Below are positions 19,497 through 64,000 of a DNA stretch of 64,000 bases, piece after piece. Origin of the DNA: Psammoneis japonica (taxonomy: Eukaryota); the NCBI GenBank assembly GCA_008632985.1, contig QPGO01000100.1, positions 1 to 64,000 on the forward strand. Direction: 5' to 3'. The notes under the pieces were generated by a model. It made no database searches. It was not told where the DNA came from and worked only from the letters and a program-made list of their open reading frames with translations. The position numbers were made by a program, and so were the translations under genes. How positions within the stretch are numbered: position 1 is the stretch's first letter; every line of letters begins with the position of its first letter.

Positions 19497-21394
19497 ATGG
19501 GAAAAACAATGACGGCGTCAAATTGTGTTGCTGCTCTAAAGGCAGCAGTACTTGTATTTCTTTGTCAACCACGGAAATTGGTTTTGGGTGATGATAAAGA
19601 CAGAGCTCATAAAAAGACTCCGACTTGCACTGATCATAAGGAATGCGAAAACCGCGACGATGAATGTAGTCTCTGGTTTGCTCCTTCCACAATTCCCGGT
19701 GCTGGGATGGGCATGTTTGCGGGCACAAATTTTAAGCGCAAGCAGGATATGATGGATCAAGGTGATATTGTTATTCCGATTGTGGATATTACATACCATC
19801 AGGAACACCGCTTAGACTACTTTTTGTGGGATGAATACACTTGGAGCGCAGAAACACTCTTTATGGAAAACGAAGGCCTCGATATCAACAGCGCATCACC
19901 GGGTTTTGGATCAGCCGCAAATAGTGTACTGGACCTTGTCAATGTAGAAGAACATTACCCCACTCAGATTAGAGGCTCTGTAGGTCTGCATCGATCCAAA
20001 GACCCGGGCGCAGGTGCGTTCACATACTATCACAACCGACGATCGACTGCCAAAAAGAACATTGAAGCCGGGCAAGAGTTGTTTGTTTCTTATGGGAGGG
20101 ATTGGTTTGAGACTCGTGAACGTCATTTAGGCGCTGTGCCCCTTACAGGAGACTATGCCTGGGCCAATGTTGTGGTTCAAAAGTTCAAGCAGCTAGAGCA
20201 GAAACTAAACAACACCGCAATGCCCCGTCATGTCTTGGATGCTCTGTGGGATCAGTTTCTACTCAACAAACCAACCAATCAATCTCGTACACTAAATGCG
20301 CTACCCAGTGATCCCGAGGAATTGTTGAGAGTCAAGGAAGTAGGCGTCATGAAGTATAGAGGGAAAAAGCTTCGGTTTCGTTGGACTTCTTGAGAGCCAA
20401 TGGGACATGTGCTTCAAACCTGCGCGTCGGCGAATCCAAAATACCTCAGGCCGGTCGTGGTGCTTTTGCAGGACGACCCTTTAAGGAAGGCGACGTTGTG
20501 GCACCCGTGCCTCTTATTCATCTTGTTGAGGGTAGACAGCAGATGGAGATGTACAAGCTAGAAAAGCATAAGAGAAAGAATGACTACGTGGTCAAGAATC
20601 GTACCAAGCCGGTGGGACAGCAGTTACTGATGAATTACTGTTTCAGTCATCCAGAGTCGACGGTGTTTCTTTGTCCCTATGGATTGCAGACTGGCTTTGT
20701 CAATCACGATTTCAAGAATTACAACATCAAACTTCGCTGGGGTGACGAGCAGAAAACCAGTCATGACAACGCCTGGCTCAACAAGTCGTTACACGATTTG
20801 AAAATACACAACAGTGCCGTACTAGCATTTGAATTTGTTGCAACACGATCGATTAAGGAGGGAGAGGAAATTCTCCTGAACTACGGAGCCGAATGGGAAG
20901 AAGCGTGGAAAACTCATGTGAAGCACTGGAAGCCGCAAGAGAACGCTACCACATACAAGTCGTCTAGGGAATACAATGAAGATAAGGAGTCACCGCTCAA
21001 GACGACATTCGATGAGCTAGAAGAGAAATACCCTGATAATGTGAAATTGAAGTGCCATTCAATCTTTTTCGAACAGAAGGTGTGGAAACGGATAGTAGCT
21101 TCAGGACGGAGCCTGGACTCCTACATTTCTGAGGTCAAGGACGACGAGTACGTTGCTTGTGACGTTACGGCAAGATATCAGAATCGGGACAAGTCGCATT
21201 ACTTGTATACCGCCATTCACGAAGATAATGAAGAAGGGAAGGAAGCCATTCGAGTAGAAGATTTACCTCGAGAGGCATTCATATTCATTGACGAAGTCTT
21301 CACGACAGACTTACATTTGAAGAACGCGTTTCGGCACGAAGCTAGAATACCGGATGAGATGCTGCCAAATCACTGGAGAAACCTAAAGAGTTAA
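19497..21394 (+). CDS. Double SET-domain protein, copy 1
   Basis: SET1: APSTIPGAGMGMFAG...IEAGQELFVSYG. SET2: SKIPQAGRGAFA...FVNH...IKEGEEILLNYG. Hydrophobic N-terminus. Frameshift near 20370. Confidence 0.85.
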
Positions 21395-22536
21395 TAGGAA
21401 GTGTAAACGTGACTTATCTATACGTTCTTTCCTATGACACTTCCCGTCCTGTAGCTTGAACCCCTCAGTGTTGGAGCTGTTTCGTTTGCTAAGCCCTGCT
21501 GCTGATGAAATGCAGCCAGAGTCCTCATCTCTGAAATCCCTGTGCTGAGAACTGCCCTCAATTTCTCCAGTTTGACTCTGTCTTCTCTTGTTGGCTGATG
21601 CACACATTGCAGCCTGCTCAGATGCTTTTGCCACCCTGGTGGTGCAGAGACTGTAGCTGTTTTGTCATGAAGCCCCAGCCAACTGCACTTGAGGAAAATG
21701 ATGAAAAAGGTTGGCTGGTGTGAGCTGCACCCCTCACCTCCTGGTGGGTGTTGCCCTGCACACCAATCAGTGCAAAATTGTGTGAGAGCAGCTCAGAGGT
21801 GCCTTGACCACCAGCATGGCACCAAGCAGAACTGCATTGTCAGCTGCTCAAGACCTCTGCTGGGCTTGCAAAACTAACCTGGCTGGCCTGGCACTGCCCC
21901 AGAGGAGCACACAGTGCACCAAGCTTCTTTCTGCCACAGCACATGATTGGCACACAAAGAAAGGGACATGCCAGGTGGGACAAAAAGCTGGGCCAAGCCA
22001 TCACAGAAAAGACTGACTGCGCCATCTGCAAAGTGCATGTGGTGTTCTAAGGACCATGAGCAACAACCCCAGCCAAAGATGAAGTGCTTGGCCATGACAT
22101 CTTGAACCCATTTTTTTGACATTGCCACACAATTTTCCTCATGTCCCTGCACTGACATGATCATTGCTCGAGTGCTTGTCTCAACCATCACATTGTTTTT
22201 CATTTTGTTGACAATGTTCAGAGATCAAAGAAGCTGCAGAAAGCAATGTTGGACAAACTTTTGCACAGATGACAGGTCGTCATTTTGCTGCATTGCAGCC
22301 AAATCAAAAAGCCATTGTGCGGCATTGAGAAACCACCTGCTGCAGCAACAACGGGCTTTGGGGAGTCCCATTTTTTTTCATGGTGTCACAACAGGGGGCG
22401 GTGGTGTGTGGGGCTCACTTCCTGGGCTTTCAGCTTCCCCGCATGGCCCCAAACATGCTGGTGATGTGCACACACATTTTCTCACCATGCCACCACAGCA
22501 AAACACACAGCTGTGCCTTGCAGAGTTCTTGTGTGA

Positions 22537-23030
22537 GGAGGCCCAATTTCTTCCAAGACCACCTTGTTCTTGCAGCTTTGTGGTCCTTTGCAGCAGCGCC
22601 CAGGCCTTGGGCACAAAAAGCATGGGGTTTTTGCTGCTGACTTCAAACTCAATTTTGAGCGCACACTCTCTCTTTTGTGATGCAGGCACAGCTGAGAACA
22701 AGCAAGGAGCAGCAGTGCACACACCTTCTTCTTTTTAAAATTGAAAAGTCAACCAAAGCATTTTCCAGGTGGTTGCACCAGCACCTCTCCATCCCACAAT
22801 GGCTTTGCATGCCGACACAACTCCTCCACGAGGAAGTCACATCAGACTTGTTGAAAAACCAAAATGTCAAGTGTGATGTCAGCCTGTGGCATGTCATTTT
22901 GGTGTGATGAATGCACACACATCCACAACCTCAATTGCTCATTTCAAGAAGAAGTCACAACAGTTTCAACAGGTTTTGTTAAAACCAGCTGATGGCAGCA
23001 TTTGCAATGAGTTGACTCAAGGTGGCATTC
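22537..23030 (+). repeat. Diverged dispersed direct repeat, copy A (copy B ~25491-25945)
   Basis: Shared colinear blocks: gtttttgctgctgac.tcaaa.tcaattt, ggagcagc..cacaccttctt, tgaaaagtca, gacacaactcc, ttgttgaaaaa and aaaccagctgatg.cagca. Confidence 0.75.
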
Positions 23031-24342
23031 AGGAGCACCTGCAAGCTGCCAGTGCACAAAAACAACACACCACCAATGCTGTTGTCATGGCTGCATCTCA
23101 AGAGCTGAGCACACTGGCAGGCCAACACAGCCTGTCCACAAATGAACACAGAGCACATTGCAAAAGTCAGTCACTGCGTGGGATTTAAAAAGCTGGGCTG
23201 CTGCCCTTTGGCATGGAAACTCATGAAATGGGCCAAAAAGTCTCCTGCAAATTTGAGAGGAGTTGATGGATCCCTTGACTGTGACAAGGCTGTCTGGCGG
23301 CACTGACTCTTGTCTCTTTTTGGAGACAAATGAGTGCATTTTGATGGAACTCAAACTGCTTTTCAACATCAGCTGCCTGCCCTCAGCCCCTGCATGTGTT
23401 TCTGCACATGCTCTTGTGCTGATGTCACCCTTCTCAGATGGCATTTTGCTGAGTCTCTGACCATGACCACTCTGGCCATTTCTGCCAATGGCGCACTCTT
23501 GTTTCAGTGTGTTGAGCAGTGCTTCTGTGTGGAAAATGATGTTGATCTTTTTTGCAAATTTCCACAGACTCAGGAAATTTCCCACCTGGATTCCAGCACA
23601 AATTCTGTGTGCTTTAGAAACCATCACCAATGAATGCTTTGTCAAATCACCAAGCTGCTTGCACCCATGCCCATCTGTCCTCAATGCCCTTCTTTGTTTT
23701 CCTGTCAGCCTCAAATCAAGTCCTTTGCTCCATTTGGCAAAAGTGCCACCTCTGTTGTGGCACCAATGAATGTGAGTGTGAGTCCTTCTTTAGCACCAAT
23801 TGACAGTTTTTCATTTGTGCACACATTGGCATTTCTGTGCAAAAGATCTGCTGTGGTTTCCATGTGTGAAAAATGTTTTTCCAATGACCGACTCAGTCAC
23901 ATCATCATCAAGCACTCCCATTTCTTATCTCCCAGTTCTGGACAACCCTTCCCTTGTTGGTTGCCGGCAAATCATGTCATGCTCCCCCCTGCTCCACAAA
24001 GTGATCTTTCTGCCATTTTTGCATTTCTTGGAGGCATGAAAGTGGACTCCTTTTTGATGAGCGCCAGCTGTTGGTTTGGCAATCATGTTTTTGCTGCTTT
24101 TAAACAAAGCTCAGAAAGCAGCTGTCATTTGCCATTGTGGCACAGCAGCCACATCTCCAGCAAAAACCACAGTGCACTGGCATCTCTCTCAAACTTTCCT
24201 TTGCCTTTTGTTGCTGGTGGGGTGCTGACTGTCAATGAGTGCAACTTGAATTTGTCAGACACACCCTCCTCTTGCAGGTGGAACCACCACACAGAGAAGC
24301 TGCAGCAGAGCTGGCTGCAAAGTGGGCAAACCATGCCTCTCT

Positions 24343-24433
24343 GAGTTGGCCCTGCTCTTTGGCTTCATCTGCAACTTCCCACACTGGAGAGTTGGCCCTG
24401 CTCTTTGGCTTTGTCTGCAACTTTCCAGCTGGA
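24343..24433. repeat. Two-copy ~46-bp tandem duplication
   Basis: gagttggccctgctctttggctt(ca/tg)tctgcaactt at 24343 and 24389. Confidence 0.85.
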
Positions 24434-25234
24434 CACACAATCCACAACAAACAACAAACCAAAAAAGTGCAAAGTCTGTGCTGGCTCTCAATTGCAAATG
24501 GCTTGTGTTCATGTTTTTTTGTCATTGGAAATGTCCACCCTCATTTGTGGCTTTGTTTTGCACTGGGTCGTGCTGGCACTGCATGAGCAAGTCTGCAAGG
24601 GCTTTGGCTGGCCCACTCTCCACAGATTTGAGGGGGCTCCAGGCTCTCACAGATGGATTTTTCTGCTGCTGCCATGCTGCAGGGCCTGGAGCTGGGGGTT
24701 CCACATGTTCAAGTGTCTCTGCTGGCAGCTCTTTCAAGCATTTGTGGTCAGGTCATTTGAGCCGCATTGAAGCAGCAACAACCCCCTGCATTGAGGTGGT
24801 GTCAAGTCTCCATGCAGCAATGATGATGCCATTCTCATGCATTGTCAAGAGCTTTGTTCAGCGCTGCCTCATCACACACCTGTCATCAGAGGTTTTTCTG
24901 AAAAATGTTGCCCATGTGATGCAGCCAATTTGGTTGAGAACCAAGCAGATGCAAAGACACAGCTGAAAGACCAGTGCTTGGAGACAGACATGATTGTCTT
25001 CCAGTCTGATGACAGAGGAGACATCGCCTCTGTAAACAATGAAGATTTGGTGGCTTTTCAGATCCCCACTGGAACTCACAGACACTTGCAACCATTTCAT
25101 GTGGCATGCTGTGTCTTCTGCACTGGTCACAAAATTGATGAACGGTGGTGTTTCTCCATGACCGACTCCTCCTTGTCACATCAAGATGTCTGAAAACATT
25201 GAGTCTTGGCAACTCACAGTGTCTCATTTGCTCC

Positions 25235-25484
25235 CATGGATGCCATGACCCAAGTCACTGGAGACACCCCACAGAATGTTCTGCTCATTGAACGACATTA
25301 ATTTCAAGCCTGCTAAATGATCAGGCATGTGCAGTCAGGAGTCATTTCAAGACAAATCAAGATTAGAATTGAGCCCAATCCTGTTCCTTTTCTTTCATTT
25401 TTCTCCCTGCATGTCGTTGCATTTTACAGCAAACACATCACACCCAAAACCTCAATGACACGCTCAAGTCACCATGATGCGCCT
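25235..25484 (+). repeat. Mutated copy of the 5' upstream region and start codon of the gene at 31575 (twin ~31335-31585)
   Basis: Shared blocks acaccccacagaatg, ggagtcatttc, gacaaatcaagattagaatt.agcccaatcctgttcc and caccatgatgcgcct. Confidence 0.9.
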
Positions 25485-25490
25485 GGGCAT

Positions 25491-25945
25491 GGAGGCTTGA
25501 CTTTTTCAAAACCAGCACATGTTGTCCTGTTGTGGCTCCATCCATTGCCCCGAGCAGCAGGCAATGAGCAAAGAAAGTGTGAAGTTTTTGCTGCTGACCT
25601 CAAATTCAATTTCACCTGCATGCTCTCTCTCTTTCTGCAGCACCAAAAACAAAGAGGAGCAGCTGTTCACACCTTCTTGACAAATGAAAAGTCAGTTTTC
25701 TAGTCAGCTGTGCCAGCACTTCCATCCCTTGATGGCTTGACACACTGACACAACTCCAGGGAGTTGCCTCAAATTTGTTGAAAAATTAAAATGTGTGAAG
25801 CAAAGCTGTTGGCTTCAACAAAACTTTGTTGAAGCTGTGCAGTTTCAACAAAATTTGTTTGAACCAATGCACAGTTTCAACAGCTTCTTCTGAAACCAGC
25901 TGATGTCAGCACCTCCAATGAATTGCTTCAAAGTGGTGTGCAGTG
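25491..25945 (+). repeat. Diverged dispersed direct repeat, copy B (copy A ~22537-23030)
   Basis: Same colinear blocks as copy A. Confidence 0.75.
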
Positions 25946-27130
25946 CCCCTGCTGCTGTGAGCTGTGAGTGACCAAAGCATGCCATTGCCAATGCTGTTGC
26001 CATGGTGACATCTCAAGACATGATGTCACTGGTCAGCTGCCCAGAGATCTGGCTGCTCACAGGAGAGGATGTTTTTGTCTCATGTTGTTTGTTCCTCTCA
26101 AACACTTCTTCTGTTGCATTTTGCTTTGGCTTGATCACCCTTTCATCCAACCAGTCAACCCAGCTGAAACTGAGCATTTTTCTCCAGTGTGATGCATTTG
26201 CCAGTTCAGATGTCCGCACCATGTCTTGTTTTTCTGGGTTGGAGTTGGAGCACAAAAGCCGTGTTGTCATGCCCATCTGCATCGTTGTCACACCAAGGGA
26301 ATCCCGCCATCCCATTTTTTGGAAGATGACATCACCCAGCATTTGGGCAGTGGCTTGAAGGCAAATCTGCACAAAGGTGCACTCATTTGTTTTGACAATT
26401 CAAAATGCCCCCTTCCACCACCACCTGCCAAGGGCTGCAGCAACGCCAATGCAACGCACAGCACATTGTGCACTGACCTCTGATTGCTTGCCCACGCTTC
26501 AGGATTTGAAACAAAAGCCATTGGGTCAGGCCGAATCCTTTGCCAATCCTGTCTCAAGTGTGCTCATGACAAAGACACTCGACAGACCCTCCACCCAAGG
26601 AACTCTGGAAATGTGTGCTGCAAGTTGTCTCTTCACAATGATCATCATCAAAACAATCATCCCAGCAAGGTCACAAGAGACAACCTTGTCAACCCCAAAC
26701 CATGAAATCCATTGATTCTGAAGGCGCCTGTGTTCCATCCACATCAAGTGCAGCCAGTTTGGGTGTCATTTTGTTTGTGGCAATGGCTGCTGTGTTGTCA
26801 CGAGAGCCACATGTGCTTCATCTTCCCAAGGAAACAACTGCAAAGGTGTGACACCCTGGTTCATTGGAGATCATCAGAAGCTGCAATGCAGTGGTTGTTG
26901 CTGTTGTTGTCATTCATTTTGCCATTGAATTTCACTCATGTCATTCTTTTAAATTTGAAAGTCAAACTTGAATGTGTTTTGACAATGCAAGGCATTTGCA
27001 CATTTCACATGAGGAATTTTGCCATCTGTTTGCATTGATGATTTGTTCCAAAGCAACATGAATTTAAAAATGTTTTGTGGTCAATTCTTTGTGCTGTGAC
27101 AATCAAACCTCTTTGCTTTTGATGATTTAG

Positions 27131-27191
27131 ATTTCAACTTGGTTTTTGCTTTTTCCACACCATTTCAACTTGGTTTTTGCCTTTTCCACCC
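27131..27191. repeat. Two-copy 31-bp tandem duplication
   Basis: atttcaacttggtttttgc.ttttccac at 27131 and 27162. Confidence 0.85.
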
Positions 27192-27448
27192 CGTTTGTGC
27201 ATCACCACATGTGTGCTGGTGTCATGTCTGTGCCCCAGTCATCTCCACATGTGCGCTCCTTTCTCTTTGCATCTCACTTTTTCCCAAATTCTGTGCATGT
27301 TTCTCTGCTGCATTTTCAGCACTTTTTCTGCATGCGCATCTGCACATTTCACAGTGCAGTGCACCTTCTCCCCAAAATCCATTTGACCAGTTCATGCGCT
27401 GTTGCGATTCACACACTTTCTGCATGAACCATCAACTGATCACCAGCC

Positions 27449-28063
27449 ATGGTGGCCAGCAACTTCACCCCATCAGCAGACGAGGTTAACCCCAATCCCT
27501 TGTTCATCTTTGCTGATGATGTCAATTTTGCTGACACAGAATGTTTTGCACCAGTGGTTTTGGAATGGAGCTGTTTGGGCCCAAGCTCAAGAACACAACC
27601 GCCACATGTGCATCCAAAGCAGTTTGTGGAGAGAACAAATTGGCCACCCTCTCCAGATTTTCTTGCACTTCCCTTCCTTTGCCACAAGCCTGAGCTTCAT
27701 CATGTTCCATGTGTCACTGAAGTCATCCACACCAACAACAATGTTGGGAAAGCTCTCAGATGTCCCGACATTTGGCCCCACATCATGACTCATGGTTGGT
27801 TGATGAAGAAATCCCACCAGAACAAAGGTGAGCAGGTTCCTTGGCATCAAAATTTGGAGGATGCTCTTTGTTTCTGCACCCTGCCAGGAGAGACAGAACA
27901 TGATGAAGAGGAGCACCATTGTGACTTTCGCTGCAACACAAAGGTGATGGCAGGGTTCACACGCCAGATCATTGCTGGTGAGGACCTCAACAATCCTGTC
28001 TCAGGCAAGCCTTGTTTCCATTTTTTATGTTGCAAAAGTCTCCAAGATCTGATTGATGACTGA
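27449..28063 (+). pseudogene. Hypermutated coding-like relic of unknown identity
   Basis: 204-codon frame with protein-like composition (LFIFADDVNFADTECFAPVVLEW...). It lies where the Gypsy RNase H would be expected, but on the opposite strand. Confidence 0.3.
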
Positions 28064-28199
28064 GCACATGACCTGCACGGTGCATGCTTTGTTGTCAAAA
28101 TGGTCATGCGTTGTGTCCTCTGCAAACCCCAAGACAGGAGCTGTCGGTTCATGCAGATCTTTTGTGAAGTCACCGCCCAAAAGGAGTGGCACATTTTTG

Positions 28200-31036
28200 T
28201 CAATGGCAGGTCATGGCACCCAAGAACGAATGCAATTGTGCAGCAGCATTCTGTGGAGGTTGCATGTGAAGGATGGCTTCAACCTTTTTCTTCCATGGCT
28301 TGACTCCATTTGGTGCAAGCCAATGCCCTAAAAATCTGTTTCCTGTGCACACCATTTGCATTTCAATGGATTCACTTTTGAGCCATTCTCCGTGAGCCAA
28401 TGTGCAAATGCAATGCTTTGTTGAGACAAGAGAGACAGGAATCAAACTCAGCATCAAAGGCACCAACATCATCAACAAAAGTTTTGACATCCAAGCCATG
28501 TAAAATCTTTTCAATGACGCATTGCACAATGTCTGGCCAGAGCCAGTTTTTTGGCCCCGCAGCCACACGACAGCATTGAAATTTGCTGCAGGGAGCTGCA
28601 ATTGTTGCTGGCTCCTTGCTTTTTCTCTCCAACTCCAGATCACAGCAGAACACAGTGAGGTCAATCTTGGTAAAGAGCTTTTGCATCCTGCTCTTTGTTG
28701 TGGCACATCTTGAATCATTGGGAGAGGACAGACTTTGCACTTGAGCATCTCACTAAATTCGCAAAAATTGAACACCCCCACTGCACTCAGTTGTCTTTCT
28801 TTGGCATGACAAAAGCACCTGCTGCCTGTTCCGCAGGTCCACATGGTCACAGTCATGCTCCAAGTTCCACCAAATGCTGCAACTCTTTCTTGAATGCTTC
28901 TTCATCAACTTGAGGAACAGCAAATGGTTTTGAGCAACAAGGCACAGCATTTTCATCCACTGTCAGGTGCACCTTTTCATGAGGACTGTGGCCTGGTGTT
29001 CCATCAAACAAGGTTGAGTGTTTCTCCAATGCCACCACCAGTGGCTCATTCTTTTGTAATCCAAATTTTTGACAACTTCCAAAGGATCCGTGGCTTCACA
29101 CTTGGCATCCAAAATGTGGCTGTCACATCCATCGTTGCACCCATGATCTGATTTGTCCTTGCAATCATCATCAAATTCATCCATTTGATCCAGAGCAATG
29201 CACCAATTGCAGGACTTGGACCAATGACGAGGTTCTTTCATTGGAATCACATGGTCTGACCAACACAGAGTCCTGGTGTTGCAGTTCAAATGGAGTCCAA
29301 TCTTGTCTAAGAAATCTTGACCCAAAACAATGTCGCGCACACATGGAGCATTGAAAATGTGAGCCACACAGCCATCCACTCCTCTCATCTTGTCAAACTC
29401 TGGTGACACAACATCACTTAGAGTCGCCCATTGACCTGACTGAAAAGGACCTGGCATTGTTTGAAAGGCTCAAACTCCATGCTCATCTGTTGATGGAGCT
29501 GCTCCATGGGGTAAAACTTGAGACAAAATCACAGTGTGAGAGCCACTGGAGTCAAGTGAAACATGCGTTGCACAATTTGACTCATGACACTGAATTAATC
29601 TGGCAACAAGTGGAGCAGACAGCACCAATGCGGTTTGCGAAACTTGCGAGTTCATTTTGGGGAGAGGAGTGTCACATTCAAACACGTCTTGATCAAACAC
29701 GTCCCTCTCATCATTCATGTGATTTTTTGCAGTGTCTTCAAATTCAGTGGGTGACAATTAATTGGGATTTCCAAAACAATCAAAAGCAAACATTTCAGGT
29801 CAAACACATTTGTTTTCACAATCCACAAACAATGCTTCACACATGGGCAATTGGGGGTGGAGCATTCAGCTCCTTCTTCTCAGAGCTGCTGAGGAAACTG
29901 CCCATCTGGCTGAAGCCTTGCCACTCCTCTTTGACATGGAGGGCCTTGTTGGATCATGTCAAAATGGTGTGCATCACCACAAGGAGCTTTTCTCGAGCCT
30001 GGTTGTCACTCACATCTGCTTGTGCAGCACAGCCAATTGTCTGTCCTTGACCACCACAGTGGTTGTCATTGTCATTGCAACAGTGCTGGCCACCACCACC
30101 TTGGTTGCCATTGTCATTGTTGTTGTTGTTGTTGCAATTGCTGCAACGGGTGCTGCAACCTCCTTGGCTCTGGTTTTTGCAACCACCGCCGCCGCAGCAT
30201 CCACTGCCACCTCAACCACCACCACAGCCTCCTTGATGGTGACCTCCACCTTGACCTCCTCCACAATGGCCTCCACCACAACTGCCACAGTTTTGAGGCC
30301 CACAACAGTTGGGATTGTTTGGATTTTCATGACACTGGGCCCAAGCATGCCTTCCCCTTGATGCCATGGGGCCAGACATGGATCGTCAGACTTGGGTTGG
30401 CTCTTTCCACCATGCTTGTCATTGTCACCCTTTTTGTCACTGGAGTTTCCTCCATTGTCCTCACTGCACTTGCATTGCTTTCCTGTTGTCTTGATCATTG
30501 GCAAACACCTTCTCGTTGCTCGCGCAGGTCTTGGTGTCCACCACGGAATCTTTGACAAGATTTTTGCCCACACAAATGCAAGGCTGCTGCCATGCCAGTG
30601 GAAAAGCACAAAAGATTGTGCTCTTTTGCTCCTCCTCAGCAAGTTCAGGAACAGCGCCAGGCAAATGGTCATCAAAAGAACAAAAAAGAGTTTCCGTGCG
30701 GTCAACATGATGTGTGCCTCCGATTCCACAGACTGAGGTTTCTTGCAAGTGTGGGCAAACAAATCTTCATGGCATCCCAAGCTGTTGGCTTCACACAGCA
30801 CAAATGACAGGCCGCCATTGTTTGATTGAACTGTGCTGCTGCTGTTCGTTGGTTCTGAGGGACCCCAGCAGCAACATTTTGCCACTTCGACTCTGCCATG
30901 CCCTGCAGGCAATCCTCAAAAGAGCACTCCTGAAGAAGCTCAGAATCAACAAATTCAGTCTTGTGTTCAATGCAAGCCTTCCATCTCCAAGGCTTCTTGA
31001 TGCATGTCTGGGAACTTCCAACGGTCCCTTGAACAT
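28200..31036 (-). mobile_element. Degenerate Ty3/Gypsy LTR-retrotransposon gag-protease-RT fragment, truncated at both ends
   Basis: Gag: FEDCLQGMAESKWQN, KKPQSV, LPG..PEL, FPLAWQQ, a knuckle-like DDPC..WH...HAWAQC..NPNNPN and a Gly-rich tail. Protease: SLDSSGSHT and [37 protein letters not shown] and [22 protein letters not shown]. There is no integrase between protease and RT, which is the Gypsy order. No RNase H, integrase or LTR was recognised. Confidence 0.9.
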
Positions 31037-31574
31037 CTTAATGCGTTAGTTAACATGCATGTGTCAGAGAGCTAGAGAGCTAGCTGGTAGACAGAGCAAG
31101 CAGAGCGACGCGCGCGAGGGCACACTCGGACATATAGCACATGTCCCTATTTCATTCAGTGGTGTTTCGCCATGATCCCCCCTTGTCCACGTCAAGATGT
31201 ACATAATGTCTACTAGAGTAGAGTGTCTCACACGTAGGTCATTGTACTGAAAATAAACACGTCATCTAAGTAAGTCTCGGTACTGTAACTTTGTCCTCTA
31301 TTGTTCATACTGTACATAGTGTCTACTGTCAGTCTATGGTACATACTGCGACCCACGTGGTTGGAACACCCCACAGAATGCTCTGCTGGTTGAACGAATT
31401 TTTAATTAAGCCTACTCAATGATTAGTACTGAGTGTGCAAATGAGGAGTCATTTCCCGACAAATCAAGATTAGAATTAAGCCCAATCCTGTTCCCTTCCC
31501 CCGTTCCCATATCGTGTTTATTTCAACAGTAAATACATCATACTGTACCACCTCGATGACATAATCAAGACACC

Positions 31575-34500
31575 ATGATGCGCCTATCAATCATCATTGC
31601 GTCCTTCACCTCTGTAGTTGGTGCAAATAATGAGGGCATGGCTATATTTGGCAACGGAAGTAGCGATCCTCCAGGATACGCTCATTGGGACGGGGATGGA
31701 TTTTCTTCTCAGGGAAGTATGAGAGACTCTACTGACGGAAGGTGGCGAATCATTCAAGGCGCCTACGCGCCCACAAGAGATGAGGCTATTGTGATTGGAG
31801 TTTCAGCCGATGAAGTGGTCACGGCCCAAATGTATTCGGAAGGACGGTGGAATGATCTTCCATTTTCGCCATTGGATGACAAGGCAGAAAACTCCTGGTC
31901 GTTTGGCTTTGATGTTCGATACGAGTCTCAGAGCGGAAATGCGCTAGTTGTGTGGCACGAGGGAAGCAGGGACACGATCCTGTACTCAACGTGGGATGGA
32001 GCGAAATGGAGTCCGCCCCAACGAATTGACACGCCTGTGCGTGGCGGTGAGCACAGCGAAGTCAACCTGGAGGCGAGCCCGGTAACTAACGAGATGGTAC
32101 TTATTGCTGGAGTCATATCAGAAAGTGATTACTGTATCGTTTGGGACGGAACAAGTTGGAGTAATGGTATCGACTTGGAAAACAAGGGCACTGGCAATTT
32201 GAGAAACATAGGTGTGGCTTATGAGCAGAACAGAGGCCGAGCAATGGTCATTTATGGCGACGGGCAAGCTTCGCTGCCGTACCAAATCTGGGATGGTCAT
32301 AAATGGCGGAAAGGGTACGCTTCAGCACCTAGTGACATTCACAAAAGAGTCCTACACGTCACAATAGGGGCAGATCCATCTAGCAATCGCATTGCGGTGG
32401 GGGTCACGTCAGATTCAGACCATGCCTTCTGGGTCGGCGTTTGGGATGGAAACAACGGTTTTGGATCAGTACAACGAGTCGCATCTGGATCATCCGCAGA
32501 AGATTACCACGGTATTGCCGTCGCATTTGAGGGGATCTCTGGACATGCGATTGCCACTTATGCACAGAACAGTGATGCGGTCCGCTACCGAACATGGTCA
32601 TCAACGTCAGGTTGGTCAGACGAGAATGACGGTCCAGATCTCGGGGCCGAACCAAACTCAATGATGCTCTATTCGGCTCATGGGAGCAATGAGATAATGT
32701 TGGCAGTCCAGAACAATAATCAAGAAGCCTCTTTTTGTTCTTGGAGTGCCGGGGGCTGGGGTAAACTAAGTAAGATGAGCCTTGACACTGGGGAACGCCA
32801 CAACAAGAACCAGCCCTACCTCTTCATGTGGAAGCCGATTGCCGGTACAATAGATCCGACCCCATTACCAACAAGTCAGCCAACTCCTCCGCCAACACCA
32901 TTTCCAAGCCCCCCTCCAACACCTCCACCCACTCAAATGGGGCCTACGCCATCGCCAACGTACTCTCCCACAGAAAAGCCAACGGTTTGTGTCGACGATC
33001 CAGAAGGTTGGTATGATCCAGACGGCGAGATCTATAATTGTCCTTGGTATGGTTTAGATGACAATTGCAATCAATACGGAGATCTATTTGAAAACTTTGG
33101 AGTCACTGCGAATGAGGCTTGTTGCGCAGTAAGTGCAATATCGGCTTTATTCTCTCTCGTATCCTAGCGTGGATTAGAATTGGCTAACCGTTTCTATTTC
33201 GTATTCGTGTTAGTGCGACGGCGGAAAACTTCTGTCGATTGATGAGATTACCCTATCCCCAACACCTCAACCAACAGATCGACCTACTATAACCCCGACA
33301 AAAGATCCAACTAACGGACCCACAGATTACCCAACGCCATTCCCTACCTCATCTCCTTCATTGAAGCCGACTCTTATGCCTACGGAACTCCCGACGGAAC
33401 CTCCAACTCTAGAGCCTTGGACTCCGCAGCCAACTCCAAAGCCGACGGGCCCACCAACGCCACCTCCTTCGACGAATCCGACTCGTTTACCTACGCCATC
33501 ACCGACAGGTAGGCCCACCCGGCCACCGACGCAAGATCCGACGGTCAGGCCTACTGCTACCGTTACTTCATCGCCAACTGACATGCCGACGAGAAGTTTC
33601 ACGGCAGAACCTACACGCAAACCAACAGGTTCGCCAACAAGAGGCCCCGCTTCGGTGCTAATCTCAGATTACAGACTGCCACCAACTGATTTGAGCAACG
33701 AAACGGACCCGATAAATTCACTAAGTAAATCGATGGGCACTGGGAAACCCTGTTCGACCAACCAGCAGTGCAAGTCATCCACTTGTCGAAACGGTGTGTG
33801 TATGGCTTCGTCGGCGTGCTACCCAATCAAGCACAAATTTGCTAAAGCATTTGACGAGCACAGTGTCAATATCGTCTTTGTTGCATCGGCATTTAACTCG
33901 GTCGGTCATAAAGAATGGAAATCCAAGGCCAACTCGACCTATGAATTCATGCAAATTTACAACATGTTTGCCAAAGAGATCGACGAACTAAACATATTCT
34001 TGGTGGATCCTCCTTCACTGGATAGATCTTTTTGCCAACTCGGTTGTGCAGGCATCGATCGTCTGTTGTGCTGTGACACTACCCGAGCTCACGCATTGGC
34101 AAGCAAATGCTTCCCTGTCGGCTCGAATCTCCAAACTCTTGTCGTTCACAACTCCGGTCAGTACGGTGGAGCCGGTTACCCTTCGGCAAACATTGCCACC
34201 GTGTCAACCCATCCAGCAGCCCCTCTAGTATTGGTACATGAGCTTGGTCACTCGTTATTTGAACTGGCTGACGAGTATTCGTACGGAGGTGGCACAGACA
34301 TTGAACCGAATTGTGCTGCTAGTGAAGCTTGCTCCAAATGGTCAGATCTCATGGGGCCCGAAAACACACCAGAAGGCTACGATCCGGTTCAATGCATTCC
34401 TGGATGTAGAAACAACAACTACTTTGTCGGAGCACAAACATTCATGAACGTTTTGTCGTATCCGGTTGGATCTGTCAATGAAAGGTTCACCTGTTGCACT

Positions 34501-35097
34501 TACTTGGCCTTGACGAAGCAGTTCCCGTCCTACTGTCAGGTTTTTGATACCTCGCCAGATTATCTTCTGAACTATTGCAAGAATAACGATTACCAGAATT
34601 ATGGAAAGTCAAATTATGAAATGGAGGGAATCTTGGCCATTCCTGGATATGTAAACAAGGACAGCAAAGATGCCAAGTACGCACACGTGTCAGAACCAGT
34701 CTTGGTGACAATTACGCAAAAGGTGAAACGATCCGGCAGAGTCGTGTTTCGTACAAAGAAACCTACTCCATTGAAGTCAGGAATGTTCCCTAGGTCTCAG
34801 ATCAACGGTGATTTTCCCAATCCCAGGGCCGCAGCTAAGAAAGGCGTAAATTCCTTGTTGAAGGTCATGGTAGTTTACCGAGGCACCCGACAAAAAGATA
34901 CCCTGTTCTTTTCGCAAAACACAACGATTCAAATCCCGCTGCCCGAGCCTGGCGACACAGAATCACAAGATGAACCCCCTATGGTCTCGGAAAAATCAGA
35001 CGCTGTGGAGCTGGTCTTGGATACCAAGGGGCGAGACATTGAATCCATTCGCGTAAAGCCCGTTGAAACAAAAAGGACTGCGGTTCAAGGAAGATAA
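31575..35097 (+). CDS. Secreted mosaic protein: WDG-repeat domain, PT linkers, Cys-rich modules and an M64-like metallopeptidase
   Basis: Signal peptide and repeated (V/I)WDGxxW strands. Intron 33129-33213 (GTAAGT..TAG) joins EACCA|CDGG in frame. HNSGQYGGAG and HELGHSLFELADEY match the M64 (IgA peptidase) pattern. Confidence 0.8.
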
Positions 35098-35537: not shown

Positions 35538-37328
35538 ATGACGGGGCCCCAGCGGCTTGTCGTTCTTACCGCAGTAGTCCTTGCATGTTGTTGCCATCCA
35601 AGCATTGAACAGACACATGATGATGAATGTAGTCTCTGGTTTGCACCTTCCACAATTCCTGGAGCTGGAATGGGCGTGTTTGCGGGCACAAATTTTTCAT
35701 GGAAGCAAGAGATTATGGAGAAAGGCGATGTCGTTATTCCAATAGTAGACATTTTCGCCCATCAGGAAGGTCGAATGGACCATTTCTTGCTCAACGAGTA
35801 CAGTTGGCACGCTATACCCCTCCTAATGGAAAACGAAGGCTTGGAAGTCATTGGCATGTCACCGGGCCTCGGTTCGGCGCTCAATTGTATTCTCGATTTA
35901 GTCAATGTGAAGGAATACCCACCAACTCAAATAAACGGTTCTGTTGGTCTGCATCGATCCAGAGATCCAGGGGCAGGGGCTTTTTCGTATTACCACAACC
36001 GACGCTCGATTGCCACCACGGACATCACTGCAGGACAAGAATTGTTTGTGGACTATGGAGTTGCATGGTTTGAATCTCGCGAGCAAGAGTTAGGTGCCCT
36101 GCCTCTGGCGAAAAACTATGAACTGGCAGGCTCTACCAGAATCGTCCAGAATTTCCGTCGTCTTCTTGACACGCTATGGGAATACTTAGTGCCTAGCACA
36201 TCAACCAACCAATCGAGAAGAGTGAATGCAATTTCAAACGATCCCGAAGAACTGTCGCGTGTGAAGGAAGCGAGCACCAGGAAGTATAGAAGGGAACAAG
36301 CAACAGTGTCTATGGACTACTTGAGAGAAAATGGCATGTGCGTTTCAAATCTACTTGTCGGCGAATCGAGAATACCTCAAGCAGGTCGTGGTGCTTTTGC
36401 AGGCCGAGCCTTTCAAGAGGGAGACGTGGTGGCGCCGATGCCTCTGATTCACCTTGTGGACGGCAGACTACAGATGGAGATGTACCAGGTCGAAAAGCAC
36501 AAAACGGAGAATTTCTTTGCCTTGAGGAATCGAACGAATCTGGTAGGACACCAGCTGATGATGAACTACTGTTTTGGTCATCCAGAATCCACCGTGTTTC
36601 TTTGTCCCTATGGATTGCGAACAAGCTTTGTCAATCACGATTTCAACAATTACAATGTCAAGATTCGTTGGGGCGATGAACAGAGAACCAGTCACAATTT
36701 TGCATGGCTTAAACAGTCACTGAAGAAATTGCGAATGCAAAAGAGTGCCGTATTAGCGTTTGAGTTGGTTGCAACACGACCAATCAAAGAGGGAGAAGAA
36801 GTTCTTTTGAATTATGGTGCTGAATGGGAAGAAGCGTGGAGGACGCATGTGCAAAATTGGCAAGCACAAGAGAACTCTACCAACTACAAGTCGTCTCGAG
36901 AGTACAACGAGGATAAGAAGTCGCCGCTCAAAACGGCGTTTGACGAGCTAGAAGATAAATATCCCGAGAATGTGAAATTGAAATGCCATTCCATCTTTCT
37001 CGACAGCAAGGTGTGGAAACGACTGGTGGCTCGAGGGCAGGACTTGGATTCCTACATTGCCAAATCGGAGGAGAACAAGTACGTTTCATGTGACATTACA
37101 GCAAGGTACCAGAGTGAGGACAAGTCTCATTACTTGTACACGGCAGTTTCTCAGGAAGATGAAGCGAAAGATCCCATTCGCATGGCCGATTTACCCCGAG
37201 AAGCGTTTGTCTTTATTGATGAGGTCTTCACGACCGACCTTTATCTTAAGAACGCATTTCGTCACGAGGCAATCATACCGGATGAGATGATACCGAATCA
37301 CTGGCGAAACCTCAAGCGAAAAGGCTAA
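35538..37328 (+). CDS. Double SET-domain protein, copy 2
   Basis: Intact 596-aa ORF, colinear paralogue of 19497-21394, with a signal-peptide-like N-terminus LVVLTAVVLACCC. Confidence 0.9.
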   Translation: MTGPQRLVVLTAVVLACCCHPSIEQTHDDECSLWFAPSTIPGAGMGVFAGTNFSWKQEIMEKGDVVIPIVDIFAHQEGRMDHFLLNEYSWHAIPLLMENEGLEVIGMSPGLGSALNCILDLVNVKEYPPTQINGSVGLHRSRDPGAGAFSYYHNRRSIATTDITAGQELFVDYGVAWFESREQELGALPLAKNYELAGSTRIVQNFRRLLDTLWEYLVPSTSTNQSRRVNAISNDPEELSRVKEASTRKYRREQATVSMDYLRENGMCVSNLLVGESRIPQAGRGAFAGRAFQEGDVVAPMPLIHLVDGRLQMEMYQVEKHKTENFFALRNRTNLVGHQLMMNYCFGHPESTVFLCPYGLRTSFVNHDFNNYNVKIRWGDEQRTSHNFAWLKQSLKKLRMQKSAVLAFELVATRPIKEGEEVLLNYGAEWEEAWRTHVQNWQAQENSTNYKSSREYNEDKKSPLKTAFDELEDKYPENVKLKCHSIFLDSKVWKRLVARGQDLDSYIAKSEENKYVSCDITARYQSEDKSHYLYTAVSQEDEAKDPIRMADLPREAFVFIDEVFTTDLYLKNAFRHEAIIPDEMIPNHWRNLKRKG

Positions 37329-59329: not shown

Positions 59330-61047
59330 ATGAGCAGCAACTTTACCAAACCCGACGACTTTCTCGTCGAGGGTTTGGAAGAGATCCAGCCGGCCTATGC
59401 CGAATTCAAGGGGAAGATGTACGCCGGCATGTTGCCGTCCGACAACAACGGCCGTACCGGCATGACCATGTTTTGGATGTTTCAACCCGATACTCAGAAA
59501 ATCGAAAAGAGCATTGTACTGTGGCTCAATGGTGGTCCCGGTTGTTCGTCGTTCAATTGTGGAGTCATGATGGAGCATTCGCCCGTGACGCAGCCTCTCC
59601 ACGATGCGGGGTATTGTTGTCTGAAACCGACGCCCGAGTTGAGCGTCAATCCGCACACGTGGACGCGTGCAACCACTATGCTGTATGTGGAACATCCCAT
59701 TGGAACGGGCTTTTCGTATGGACATCCCTATCCAAATAACGAGCGAGAAGCATCGGCAGATTTGGATGCATTTCTGCAGAACTTTTACAAGGTCTTTACG
59801 GATCTGCAAGACCACGACTTTTATGTCGTTGGGGAGTCTTATGCCGGCATGTTTGTCCCGTCCATCTCCAGGTACATTCATCGTGCCAACCAACAAGGTG
59901 ATAAGGATCGTATTCCAGTCCCTCTCAAGGGCGCGGCACTCGGTAACGGGTGGATTGAACCCAAGATTCAAGGCCCCGCAACAATCGATTACTCGTGGTG
60001 GCACGGACTGATTGACAACCTACGCGCGATGCCCTTCATACAGAATGGGACAGTTGCATGGAATATTTCAAGAGTGGCGTTACCGATACCACAGAGCCTC
60101 CTCCTTTTCATGCCTTTAATGTACAAGATGATTGTGGCATCATGTGGGGTATCCTGGAGGCCGCAGGTAATCCCAATGCTTACGATATCACAACGTGGGA
60201 TCCCAATGTCGATCAAATCACCTTTACGTCCGAAGCCTTTTTCAACGATCCCATTGTCAAGAAGGCGCTTCATGTCGATGAAGTTGCGTTTGATCATTTC
60301 TGGCATGGCTGTCAAGCGGGATCGGGTCGTCGTCGCTTCTTGTCTGCTGCTAGTAGTACTTTGCCGGATCAACGCATTCGCAAGCTGTACATGGACAATG
60401 ATCGTCCAATTTCGGTTGTGCCGTACATTGCTGAACTCCTCGAGGACGATATTCCCGTTCTTGTTTACAATGGCGATCGCGACATGACCACCAACATGGT
60501 TGGAACGGAGCTTTGCTTGAATGAGATGGAGTGGAGCGGAAAGGACGAATGGTTGGATGCGCCCAGGGGGCTTTGGAAAGTGGACGACTATCCTGCCGGA
60601 TGGGCCAAGGAATACAAGAGTCTCACGTTTGCCGTTGTATACAACAGTGGTCACATGGTAAGTTATGATGGCGTTTGAATGGGCGAAGCGCTTGCTATGC
60701 TCACTCTCGACACGGATTATGCTTTCTAACACTTTGGAATTTCGCATTACCAACAGGTCCCTTACAATGCTCCAACCAGTGCTTATGATCTCCTTACAAG
60801 GTTCATGACTCAAAAGAGCTTCATTGATGCCGAGGCTCCCCAGATTCGGGCGGATCCGGTGCGTCCAATCGCCCCTTTCCCCGTTGTTGACCCCGGCCAC
60901 AAGCCACGAGCCATGACGACGAGCACCAAGTACGCAATGGTCGATTTCCTTCCTGTCCTTATTGCGGTTTTGGTTGGCTTTTTCTTGGGAGCACTCTTTC
61001 GCGGGCGTGGCAGCCCTCGAAGGGGATACGAGGTTGTCCCAGAGTGA
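59330..61047 (+). CDS. Serine carboxypeptidase S10 (KEX1-like, C-terminal TM)
   Basis: WLNGGPGCSS, GESYAG, YNGDRD and SGHM|VP with intron ~60658-60756. Frameshift near 60020. Confidence 0.92.
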
Positions 61048-62109
61048 GACTACCAAGTGAAAGCTAGCTAGTTATGCAGTAGAAGTGTTGGGGGGTTAGA
61101 TTAAAAATGTTTACTTAATTGTACTACAGACAGTGGTGACTGATTCCTGAGCTATAACGCAGGATCGCTGAGCCTACGTTTACCTTGTTGGTGCTGACTT
61201 CAACAAATGTAGCTGACAAGTCACAATTATTGCGTTCCAGCGATGTTGCTCTACCTCTGGTAGGCCCTCTAGCTAGTAGGAGCATGTACTTATACTCTCT
61301 ACTCTTTCTAGAAGTAGCTACTAAGCTCTCTCTACTAGCCACTCTAGCTAGAGTACCGTGGAGCTAAGCAGGGATGAGTTGGATGCTCCGAATTCTAGAA
61401 TGATGACGGTTGATTGGCAGTTATTGGCTTTCGCGCGACCCGTGGGATACTCTCTACTTGCTACTAGCTAGCTACTCTAGCCGCTAAGAGAGCGAACAGC
61501 CGTCGTTCCGGATTCAGGGGCGTAGATTTTTGTTTTTGGAGATGACAAAGTGTCGACCCGCATTGGCCTTCTTTGAGCTGTTCTTCATTGTTGACATTAA
61601 TTGAAGACACAGACATTGCTTTTAGGAGTGGGCCTTTGGTTTGGCAAGAAACGGAGTTGTTGTTGTGCAGAAATCAAAGCAAACACGGGTCTTTTTGCTG
61701 TGGCGTTGCCTTTTCTGAGCAGCAAAACCCATGCTCTGATGTTTGTTCATTTGTGTCACCTCCTCTGATGATGACCATTGCTGTCATCTGTGTGCAGTGT
61801 GTTTGATCTGTGGTGAGAAATGTCACACTGTCACGTTGACTGGGAAATGCCGCAAAATGGGAAATTTTCATTGCCCACATTTTGATGCATGCATTCATTC
61901 AATGCACCTCCTTTGTTGCTTCCCTTTGATGGTGTCTCTTTGTTGTAGACACAAAAACATCCTCTGTCTTTGATGTGCTGTCTGTGTGATTTGTGGTGAG
62001 AAATGTCAGTCACACTCGTGTGTGGTCTCGTGCCAGCATTTTGTGGCTAAGACCGACCCATGCTGCTTTGATGTTTGTTCATTCATTTCACCTCTTTGCT
62101 CACACTTCT

Positions 62110-62208
62110 TTGATCTAATCTCTTCTTCACTTGTGAAAAAATTGCATTGCTTTGCGCTTGATCCAATCTCTTCTTCACTTGTGAATGGATTGCATTGCCT
62201 TGCACTTG
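62110..62208. repeat. Two-copy 48-bp tandem duplication
   Basis: ttgatc(t/c)aatctcttcttcacttgtgaa...attgcattgc.ttgc(g/a)c at 62110 and 62158. Confidence 0.85.
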
Positions 62209-62399
62209 CGTTTTGGTGGGGTCATCCTCATCACATTGGCACAGGACATCCCATCAAGGAGCTGCCCTCTGCCATTGCATCTGACAATGACAACCTGTGC
62301 TGTGCCAGTGGCATGCAACAGCCAAAAAACATGGTGGTGGATGACCCAATGTGATGGCATCTCATCACACGTTGGCTTTGTGGTGCCAGGAACATTGGC

Positions 62400-63500
62400 T
62401 CTGTGTCCAGAGTGTGCAAATCCTGAGAGAAAATGTTGTTGTCTGATGATGACAGAGGAGGAGACAACTTGTGAAAGCAGTTCTGTGCCAACACCCATTT
62501 GGAGGGCACAGTCCAAAGCTTTCTTTGTGTGGTGCTGAGCTGGGACTTTTGTTGTTCGACCCAATCACTTGACATGAATGTGTCCTCCACTGAAGAATTG
62601 CCAAGCACTCTGCTTGGCCCTGCCCTGGGGTCAAGCAGCATCTTTGCTGTTGGTGAACTCAGCCACAAACAACCCACCGACAATGGCATCAAGAGCAGCC
62701 AACACGTTCTTGCTTTGTGAGCACATGATTTAGTTCAGCACAAGCCAGAGCTGTCACATGTGCCTGATGCCATTGCTGGGGTGGTGCTCACAGTGGAAAA
62801 TCCACGCGCATCAGCAGCAGCCCTTCCAAGCAGATTTGACAAAGCGTTCAAGGAAGTGCTGGAAATCAAATGCATCACATGCAACATCCTGTGCAATGCC
62901 TCGTTTGACAACACTCCAAAGGATGATGACAGAGATGCTCTTTTTCTCAAGGTGAATCTTTTCAGGCAGGACAACATGAAGTTGGTGTGTGGTCTGGAAG
63001 AGGATTCTGTCAGTTGCTTGCATGAGGAGACAAACAAGCCATTGTTCATGTTTGAGAACACCACAGCAGTGGACAATGCTCAGGCTGGAGGAAATTCTTT
63101 CACAGTGCAGGTCAAGGACAGTGCAACTGGGTTTCAAAGCTGGTCTTTTGTGTGAAACTGGGTTTCAAAGCTGGGCCTTTGTCCACGTGGGCATCCTGGA
63201 AGAGGAGGAATTCCCTTGGATCTCAGAGCTGCCAGGCTGCACAGATGAGAAGGACACTCACTGCATCCTGTCCAAAATGCCTGCCTGCAAGTTTTGGATT
63301 GGTCACTTTTCACCACATGTGCATGGTGTGCCAAACAGACCATTTGAAAGTGAAAATGACATGGCTGTCACATTGGGAGGCTTGTGTTGATGGTGAGCTC
63401 TGCTTCGGAGCATTGGCCACTCCCAGTGCTTGGGGACACCATGGCTTGTCAAACTCCTTGACAGTTGGCAGATGGCTTCTGCAGCAGATTCACACATTTC
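62400..63500 (+). pseudogene. Hypermutated coding-like relic of unknown identity
   Basis: Protein-like stretches such as PDAIAGVVLTVENPRASAAALPSRFDKAFKEVLEI...GLEEDSV..LFMFENT, broken by TGA stops and frameshifts. Confidence 0.35.
63125..63183. repeat. Two-copy 31-bp tandem duplication
   Basis: aactgggtttcaaagctgg at 63125 and 63156. Confidence 0.85.
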
Positions 63501-64000
63501 AGTCCCTTGTTTGCACTGCATCTTTGTGCTGCATCAGAAAGCATCAACCTGGCAACAATTTGTGAATGTGCACTTCGCAAAGAGTGCTTTGAGATGGGCA
63601 AATCCAAAATTCCAATCCCCATGATGGACATTTTTGTCCTTGAAGCTAGAATGTGTTTGAATGCAATGTGATGCTGCAGGTGATTTACATGTGAGACATG
63701 AAGAAGCTTTGGGTCATTTCATGCTTTTTCATTGCGCCAGCAGTCGTGAAAGTTCGAACAAACCTTGTCACAGTTAAGCACCTGCATTTTCTTGCAAAAT
63801 GTGAAATGAAGGTTGTCGAAAACTGCATCTTCACAGGGTGCACCTGCCAGAAAGGAAAATGTTTTTGCCATTTCAGGACCAAGAGGCATTTAACTGCACG
63901 GCAGCTTTCAAATGTTGGAGCGCATCAGACAAGAACTTTTGTGCTGAATTTTGCATTCTGTCACAATGAACTACAAACAAAATTGTCAGTGCCACTGTGA

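Follow-up and report, generated by a model that had tools for sequence, protein, structure and literature searches.

In the 64,000 nucleotides of contig QPGO01000100.1 from Psammoneis japonica that were analysed here (the window), two old copies of one gene upstream region have had different fates. The copy that lies within a bounded block nearly devoid of TA and CG has lost most of its own TA sites, mainly to CA and TG, and the copy just outside the block has kept them. The explanation that we find probable is that transitions at TpA and CpG were introduced in place over the whole block after the duplication, and that position in the block decided what was hit. Native sequence would in that case have been rewritten where it stood, with location in a bounded block selecting the target, and the two copies would form a natural before-and-after pair, in which an odd composition can be read site by site as the trace of a mutational process.

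Results

A table of dinucleotides per kilobase sets two stretches of the window apart, one at about 21.5-31.0 kb and one from 61.6 kb to the window end. Counted in full 1-kb bins, the O/E of TA is 0.00-0.09 in these stretches vs 0.38-0.82 elsewhere, that of CG is 0.07-0.26 vs 0.77-1.22, and the mean of CA/TG is 1.75-1.88 vs 1.01-1.40. The first, block 1 (21497-31019, 9.5 kb, no strand assigned), has TA and CG nearly erased and CA/TG in excess, with overall O/E values of about 0.05 for TA, 0.17 for CG and 1.85 for CA+TG; block 2 (61561-64000, likewise without strand) bears the same signature and continues past the window end. From outside to inside the block, the frequency of TA falls from 0.0377 to 0.0034 and that of CG from 0.0566 to 0.0094, and CA+TG rises from 0.147 to 0.228. 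All pyrimidine-purine (YR) dinucleotides taken together make up a share of 0.2406 in block 1, 0.2477 in block 2 and 0.2410 outside. Since the total in block 1 is unchanged to within 0.0004, the loss of TA and CG equals the gain of CA and TG, and the composition is that of this genome's ordinary DNA in which TA and CG have gone to CA or TG by transitions alone. There is no strong CA/TG skew along the block, and both strands are affected.

The block edges were taken as likelihood change points computed on all pyrimidine-purine steps, which place the left edge of block 1 at 21490|21497 (support 21452-21511), its right edge at 31019|31022 (support 31001-31039) and the start of block 2 at 61559|61561 (support 61523-61658). 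The edges of block 1 are located to within 60 bases, and none of the three support intervals is longer than 135 bases. Change points computed separately on TA alone and on CG alone coincide within the support intervals at all three block ends. As to the content of the blocks, none of their 57 ORFs gave anything at or above the Pfam cut-off, a tblastn comparison of 22 window ORFs with both blocks found no coding remnants of window proteins (best E 0.041), and Rfam gave nothing at gathering score in 21000-32000. Tandem repeats are limited to four small arrays.

Much of block 1 occurs in further copies. When bins are called multi-copy or low-copy by contig depth at 80% likeness or more, 14 of 24 are multi-copy (depth 144-1545) and 10 are near single-copy, against a base of about 60-70, with the limit that old, independently decayed copies escape this criterion, as the repeats R1 and R2 within the block, described below, are only 65% identical. 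TA is retained equally in the two depth classes (12 of 936 YR steps at depth below 100 and 20 of 1357 at 100 or more, P 0.86), CG counts in the same classes are 29 and 60 (P 0.12), and low-copy bins remain as fully depleted as the multi-copy bins at distances of up to about 1.5 kb from the nearest of these. Other genomic copies of the block repeats differ from the window copy by about 502 transitions vs 199 transversions. At 28935-28936 and 28994-28995 other genomic copies (11 and 7 contigs) carry TG in place of the CA of the window and CA in place of its TG, and such swaps between dispersed repeat copies are the expectation if each repeat copy decayed separately. Each of the listed public-run contigs, with a depth of about 58-71, shows 0-3 differences from the block, which excludes faulty assembly or base calling as the source of the pattern. 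Runs X2 and X3 cover the block scarcely or not at all and are uninformative on expression.

The duplicated upstream region has its unmutated copy, the outside twin (31315-31585, plus strand), about 295 bases beyond the edge of block 1, where it comprises the upstream region and the first 11 bases of an intact ORF of 530 codons (31575-33167, plus strand) with a signal-peptide-like start. The mutated copy, the inside twin (25215-25484, plus strand), is a remnant of a gene 5' region that ends at base 11 of the former ORF and runs straight into repeat R2 without a reading frame. The two are true paralogues, with 74.6% identity over 248 bases by blastn within the window (E 1.4e-33). Their local alignment has 283 columns, made up of 204 identities, 29 transitions, 25 transversions and 25 gap columns, and as a measure of age there are 0.097 transversions per site. 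An extension of the alignment collapsed to purines and pyrimidines gave no significant homology beyond ORF base 11 (the score was reached by 21 of 500 shuffles), and a third copy upstream of R1 was not found (scores reached by 122 and 112 of 200 shuffles). With a contig depth of 72-77, the bins of the inside twin are low-copy at 80% likeness or more, and the only inverted repeat around it is one 24-base hairpin at 25814-25863.

In its 271 bases the outside twin has 19 TA and 8 CG (TA O/E 0.86), and the inside twin has 4 of each (TA O/E 0.19). This agrees with the initial annotation of this DNA, which held that the copy outside keeps its TA and CG sites and that only the copy in the block is mutated; all the individual changes that it listed are present in our alignment. 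At 18 outside TA the inside copy shows 8 CA, 4 TG, 1 CG and 1 TC, with 2 TA kept and 2 opposite gaps. Seen from the other side, 2 of the 4 inside TA are shared with the outside copy and 2 stand opposite AA/TC, none being opposite CA or TG. The asymmetry of TA vs CA/TG is thus 12:0 (12 of the 16 aligned outside TA; binomial P 0.0005). The 8 outside CG correspond to 3 CG, 1 CA, 1 TG, 2 AG and 1 TT; the count of CG vs CA/TG is 2:0, three of the eight differ by changes that include a transversion, and the CG evidence within the twin itself is thin.

A duplicated SET-domain gene with both copies outside the blocks (19624-21398 and 35580-37324, both on the plus strand) serves as a control. The two copies are 74.6% identical over 1730 aligned bases, and they bracket block 1 and the two genes after it. 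They differ by 0.115 transversions per site, and in them TA vs CA/TG is 17:12 (P 0.46) and CG 30:23. Set against this pair, with 17 TA changed and 32 kept, the twin with 12 changed and 2 kept is clearly different (Fisher P 0.0016). The asymmetry of losses that the initial annotation expected from a pairwise alignment is hence strong for TA, at 12:0 vs 17:12 in the control, and weaker for CG, at 2:0. Judged by the rate in the SET pair, ordinary divergence, on one lineage or the other, could account for about a quarter of the 12 twin differences.

The third comparison is between two paralogous repeats in block 1, both on the plus strand: R1 (22505-23124, or 22411-23124 as delimited for this pair) and R2 (25485-26039, or 25371-26039), the latter beginning at the end of the inside twin. 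They have 72 transversions in 650 sites (0.111) and almost no TA or CG left. CA stands opposite TG at 26 of their 111 CA/TG steps, vs 9 of 155 in the SET pair (P 3.6e-5); in the twin such swaps number 1 of 31, and other adjacent double transitions between R1 and R2 number only 1-8 per kind. A CA opposite a TG takes two adjacent transitions unless the ancestor was TA or CG, and the CA/TG of the block can thereby be recognised as derived without an outgroup. The swaps point to TA or CG ancestors, and CA/TG would then have arisen separately in each copy after the duplication. For the twin, internal arguments, which leave single sites unpolarised, likewise indicate that the change was a loss within the block. 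With 0.115, 0.097 and 0.111 transversions per site, the SET pair, the twin and the R pair look as if they stem from one duplication period.

Outside the window, the conserved core pattern of the twin matched neither metagenome nor viral contigs (0 each), and for the protein of the downstream gene 19 pattern matches in metagenome contigs were obtained, of which none was confirmed. This protein belongs to no Pfam family and its nearest relatives are at most 42% identical and bacterial or metagenomic, so they offer no orthologous upstream region. A contig depth of 195 in the bin 31025-31425 gives a hint of further, diverged copies.

The TA sites that survive in the blocks are strongly selected by their neighbours. 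Among the 43 in the two blocks, none (0/43) has the context R-TA-Y, 12 are mixed and 31 are Y-TA-R, vs 573, 1070 and 353 in the same classes outside the blocks (chi-square P 6.5e-19); Y-TA-R is the context that survives. Normalised to all pyrimidine-purine steps having the same flanks, TA survival is 0.68 for TTAA, 0.42 for CTAA/TTAG, 0.12 for GTAA/TTAC and 0.09 for CTAG, and 0.04 or less in all other contexts. This rule of R-TA-Y against Y-TA-R is a new lead from the present analysis. If the ancestral composition was like that outside, the TG share among the gains is 0.54-0.56 before Y and 0.41-0.47 before R, and this dependence on the 3' base fits an adenine that is targeted preferentially in T-A-Y on its own strand. 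The flanks have a weak effect on CG that runs counter to their effect on TA, with R-CG-Y surviving best (P 0.008), and the opposite preferences suggest two activities and not one. Among surviving CG we also observed that GCGC is enriched (18 of 116 inside vs 166 of 2933 outside) and that CCGG is nearly absent (1 inside vs 102 outside).

From the TA and CG sites left in the inside twin, the initial annotation had suggested that this segment may be a younger addition to the block. The twin does have the highest TA density in block 1 (4 vs 0.82 expected, Poisson P 0.0097), where no 270-base window reaches 4 TA without overlapping it. The survival rule, derived with the twin excluded, predicts however 2.26 retained sites among the 18 outside-copy TA, and 2 were observed. 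Both of these are Y-TA-R, a context in which 2 of 4 sites were kept vs 0 of 12 others (P 0.05), and the other two TA of the inside twin are new, having come about by transversion or indel in slow contexts. The context prediction per strand was right at 3 sites in the twin and wrong at 2. The context rule accounts for the surviving TA of the twin, and a younger age is not needed.

Discussion

The course of events that we propose starts with an old dispersed duplication, which would have given two copies of a gene upstream region together with its first 11 coding bases. One copy (25215-25484) would have ended up in a repeat-filled intergenic block, while the other (31315-31585) still heads an intact gene. 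After the duplication, TpA would have been changed to TpG or CpA, and CpG to TpG or CpA, on both strands and in place across the block, unique inserts being affected as much as repeats, and position in the block, not likeness to the twin, would have selected the copy that was mutated. The TpA half could come from an enzyme that deaminates adenine in DNA and whose recognition extends at least to R-T-A-Y, attacked fastest, as against Y-T-A-R, with TTAA nearly immune. The CpG half could be deamination of 5-methylcytosine in methylated repeat chromatin, and the block edges would then be the edges of a chromatin domain. As a more tentative idea, for which we claim less than even confidence, diatoms may carry a DNA adenine mutator guided by chromatin domains and similar to the one just described from a chlorarachniophyte, here driven to saturation and with a previously unreported footprint in which R-T-A-Y is fully erased and TTAA almost immune. 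As it would cover exactly the span of the CpG loss with the opposite flank preference, two activities would obey one domain signal.

Position is favoured over similarity as the factor that decides the target, given the untouched outside twin, the sharp TA and CG edges and the equal depletion of low-copy bins. The initial annotation had the mutagenesis follow the chromosomal domain and not homology pairing, unlike fungal RIP, and its first part is upheld by the asymmetry of the twin with only the in-block copy affected, by the sharp edges that TA and CG share, and by the depletion that is the same in low-copy and multi-copy DNA. The contrast with RIP is weaker. The twin is short (270 bases, roughly 80% identical) and old and is for that reason a weak test against homology-triggered targeting, as RIP requires duplications longer than this; and because the block is largely multi-copy repeat, targeting may have been nucleated at repeats and then spread over the DNA embedded between them. 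Targeting from repeats that covers a chromatin domain fits everything seen, and strict pairwise homology with leakage is less likely.

The latter would be a process triggered by homology as in RIP, where the repeats are recognised by pairing with copies at other loci and the mutator spills over into the low-copy DNA among them, the match with the outside twin being too short to take part. This is rather unlikely in our opinion, but it has the repeats on its side: 14 of the 24 bins of the block are multi-copy (depth 144-1545 vs a base of about 60-70), the copies elsewhere differ mainly by transitions (about 502 vs 199) and show CA/TG swaps, and in fungi RIP can leak into adjoining unique DNA. 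Such leakage would, on the other hand, have to deplete low-copy bins fully at about 1.5 kb from a multi-copy bin and then stop within 60 bases or less, and to do so with TA and CG edges that coincide at three block ends. The chemistry is moreover opposite to that of RIP.

The direction of change could also be turned around. The outside twin is situated in unusually TA-rich DNA, its 19 TA corresponding to the 93rd percentile of 528 non-ORF windows, and some of these TA may therefore be gains outside the block. The flank between the block 1 edge and the outside twin (31022-31314, no strand assigned) has a TA O/E of 1.11. In windows of 300 bases TA O/E is 1.0-1.22 at 31022-31350 and 1.24-1.52 at 61000-61559, whereas 1005 windows elsewhere have a mean of 0.55 and a 99th percentile of 0.93, only one of them reaching 1.07; two of the three block edges thus adjoin the most TA-rich DNA of the window. 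It is conceivable, if very improbable, that the inside copy is near the ancestor and that the outside copy gained its TA from CA/TG by RIP-like C-to-T changes in a TA-rich flank, as the twin with its flank and also the flank of block 2 (61000-61559, TA O/E 1.28, CA+TG O/E 0.83) might lead one to think. The outside twin still has a normal CA+TG O/E of 1.37, though, and its TA sites, with 5, 7 and 4 in the three context classes, have the neighbours of ordinary DNA. All TA sites of the ancestor would need to have been Y-TA-R, as is characteristic of mutated DNA, and the inside copy is TA-poor in the same way as 9.5 kb of unrelated neighbours. The pair within the block, finally, has derived CA/TG.

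An origin from RNA, hyperedited at UA in the manner of ADAR and only then reverse-transcribed and inserted, would mean that the block was born mutated, and we rate it a shade below the reversed direction. A change of A to G with a preference for a 5' U or T does match ADAR as the Bigelowiella preprint describes it. A single segment is, however, affected on both strands (the twin has 8 CA and 4 TG, and CA/TG are balanced along the block), unrelated pieces such as the twin, the R repeats and the high-copy repeats lie within one pair of sharp edges, duplicates within the block have decayed independently, and the CG loss would be unaccounted for. That there was no mutagenesis, the odd composition of the block being that of foreign or selected DNA, or an artefact of assembly or base calling, can practically be dismissed, as nothing specific speaks for it apart from the lack of a protein domain that identifies the origin of the block, and it is contradicted by the site-for-site correspondence of TA to CA/TG against a native paralogue, by a YR total conserved to 0.0004 and by public-run contigs at about 60-70 depth that agree with the window.

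The closest known system for the TpA half seems to be the TpA hypermutation of Bigelowiella natans, to which CpG decay has to be added. Mettrop et al. report in their preprint (bioRxiv 10.64898/2026.01.13.699255) that two viral inserts accumulated 231 mutations, of which 230 were A-to-G or T-to-C, all at TpA, and that the de novo mutation rate was raised roughly 1000-fold. The same preprint describes clusters of TpA-poor and CpA+TpG-rich windows in the B. natans genome, proposes DNA adenine deamination by an ADAT2-type deaminase, and itself draws the analogy to RIP (bioRxiv 10.64898/2026.01.13.699255). What is described there resembles the diatom block in the TpA-only changes to TpG or CpA on either strand, in the bounded nuclear regions and in the TpA-poor, CpA+TpG-rich footprint. 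There are differences as well. The Bigelowiella process was measured in mutation-accumulation lines and that of the diatom block is deduced from footprints alone. The reported targets in Bigelowiella are giant-virus and virophage inserts; the diatom block is repeat-filled and intergenic and carries no viral or transposon protein domain (0 of 57 ORFs at the Pfam cut-off and 14 of 24 bins multi-copy), and the inside twin is host-derived. The TpA loss is given as partial in Bigelowiella (Rho 0.45) and is near complete in the diatom block (O/E about 0.05). The main text of the preprint has 0 occurrences of the words CpG, context, trinucleotide and flanking, while the diatom block has a CG loss that spans the same DNA and a strong rule of R-TA-Y against Y-TA-R. 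The hosts differ too, Bigelowiella being a chlorarachniophyte and the present one a pennate-diatom-like stramenopile; the best named relatives of the serine carboxypeptidase encoded at 59330-60487 are from raphid pennate diatoms (Fistulifera 63%, Mayamaea 64% and Seminavis 56% identity). A protein atlas assigned a window protein no more narrowly than to the eukaryotes.

With RIP the block has in common the transitions in a dinucleotide context, the association with repeats and a saturation that disables the sequence. RIP turns CpA into TpA and so raises TA, whereas the diatom block loses TA and has a CA+TG O/E of about 1.85. RIP also mutates both duplicates, and here only the in-block twin is mutated, with the caveat that this duplicate is short and old. 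It is a premeiotic process that needs pairing of duplicates and a DNMT4/RID enzyme. Diatom DNMT4 is described as related to the RIP enzyme RID, and loss of DNMT5a in Phaeodactylum is reported to remove methylation and derepress young transposons (PMC9998398). The decay of CpG by 5-methylcytosine deamination in methylated transposons resembles the CG half, being a change of CG to TG/CA that is limited to repeat-rich, presumably silent DNA. It would explain that half only, with methylation of the diatom block presumed, and the flank preference of the CG loss is weak and opposite to that of the TA loss. Amphioxus BjADAT2 is reported to deaminate both A and C in DNA, C in TCG and A in GAA (PMC10354150). 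An ADAT2-type enzyme would thus have the attraction that one family acts on both bases and that its preference for C in TCG is a CpG context, but the adenine context reported is GAA and not TA, and the activity described comes from experiments in E. coli and in vitro and not from a genomic footprint over a whole domain. In the literature searched we found no description of TpA erasure in diatoms.

The process is a variant of a very recently described kind, for which the twin is a useful natural control. The combination of an in/out, an out/out and an in/in pair is a simple design that can be repeated genome-wide, and the context rule, with R-TA-Y erased and TTAA spared, is a testable fingerprint of the enzyme that can be compared with the 231 de novo mutations reported for Bigelowiella. 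If the idea of a diatom mutator is true, TpA hypermutation would be an old genome defence across SAR groups. If it is common to diatoms and chlorarachniophytes, it would be a new class of eukaryotic genome defence, opposite to RIP in its direction and experimentally accessible in tractable algae.

Some further features of the window were noted. The neighbour of the ORF at 31575-33167, at 33376-35097, encodes an M64-type peptidase, and both have proline/threonine-rich linkers; the two genes may be of bacterial origin. The stretch 61000-61559, with its low CA+TG (O/E 0.83), is a mirror image of the block that follows it. CTAG is clustered at 61001-61500, with 12 occurrences in 500 bases vs a mean of 0.94 per 500 outside the blocks; the cluster is in AGCTAG/CTAGCT-like runs just before block 2, and a smaller group is found at 31072-31080, outside block 1.
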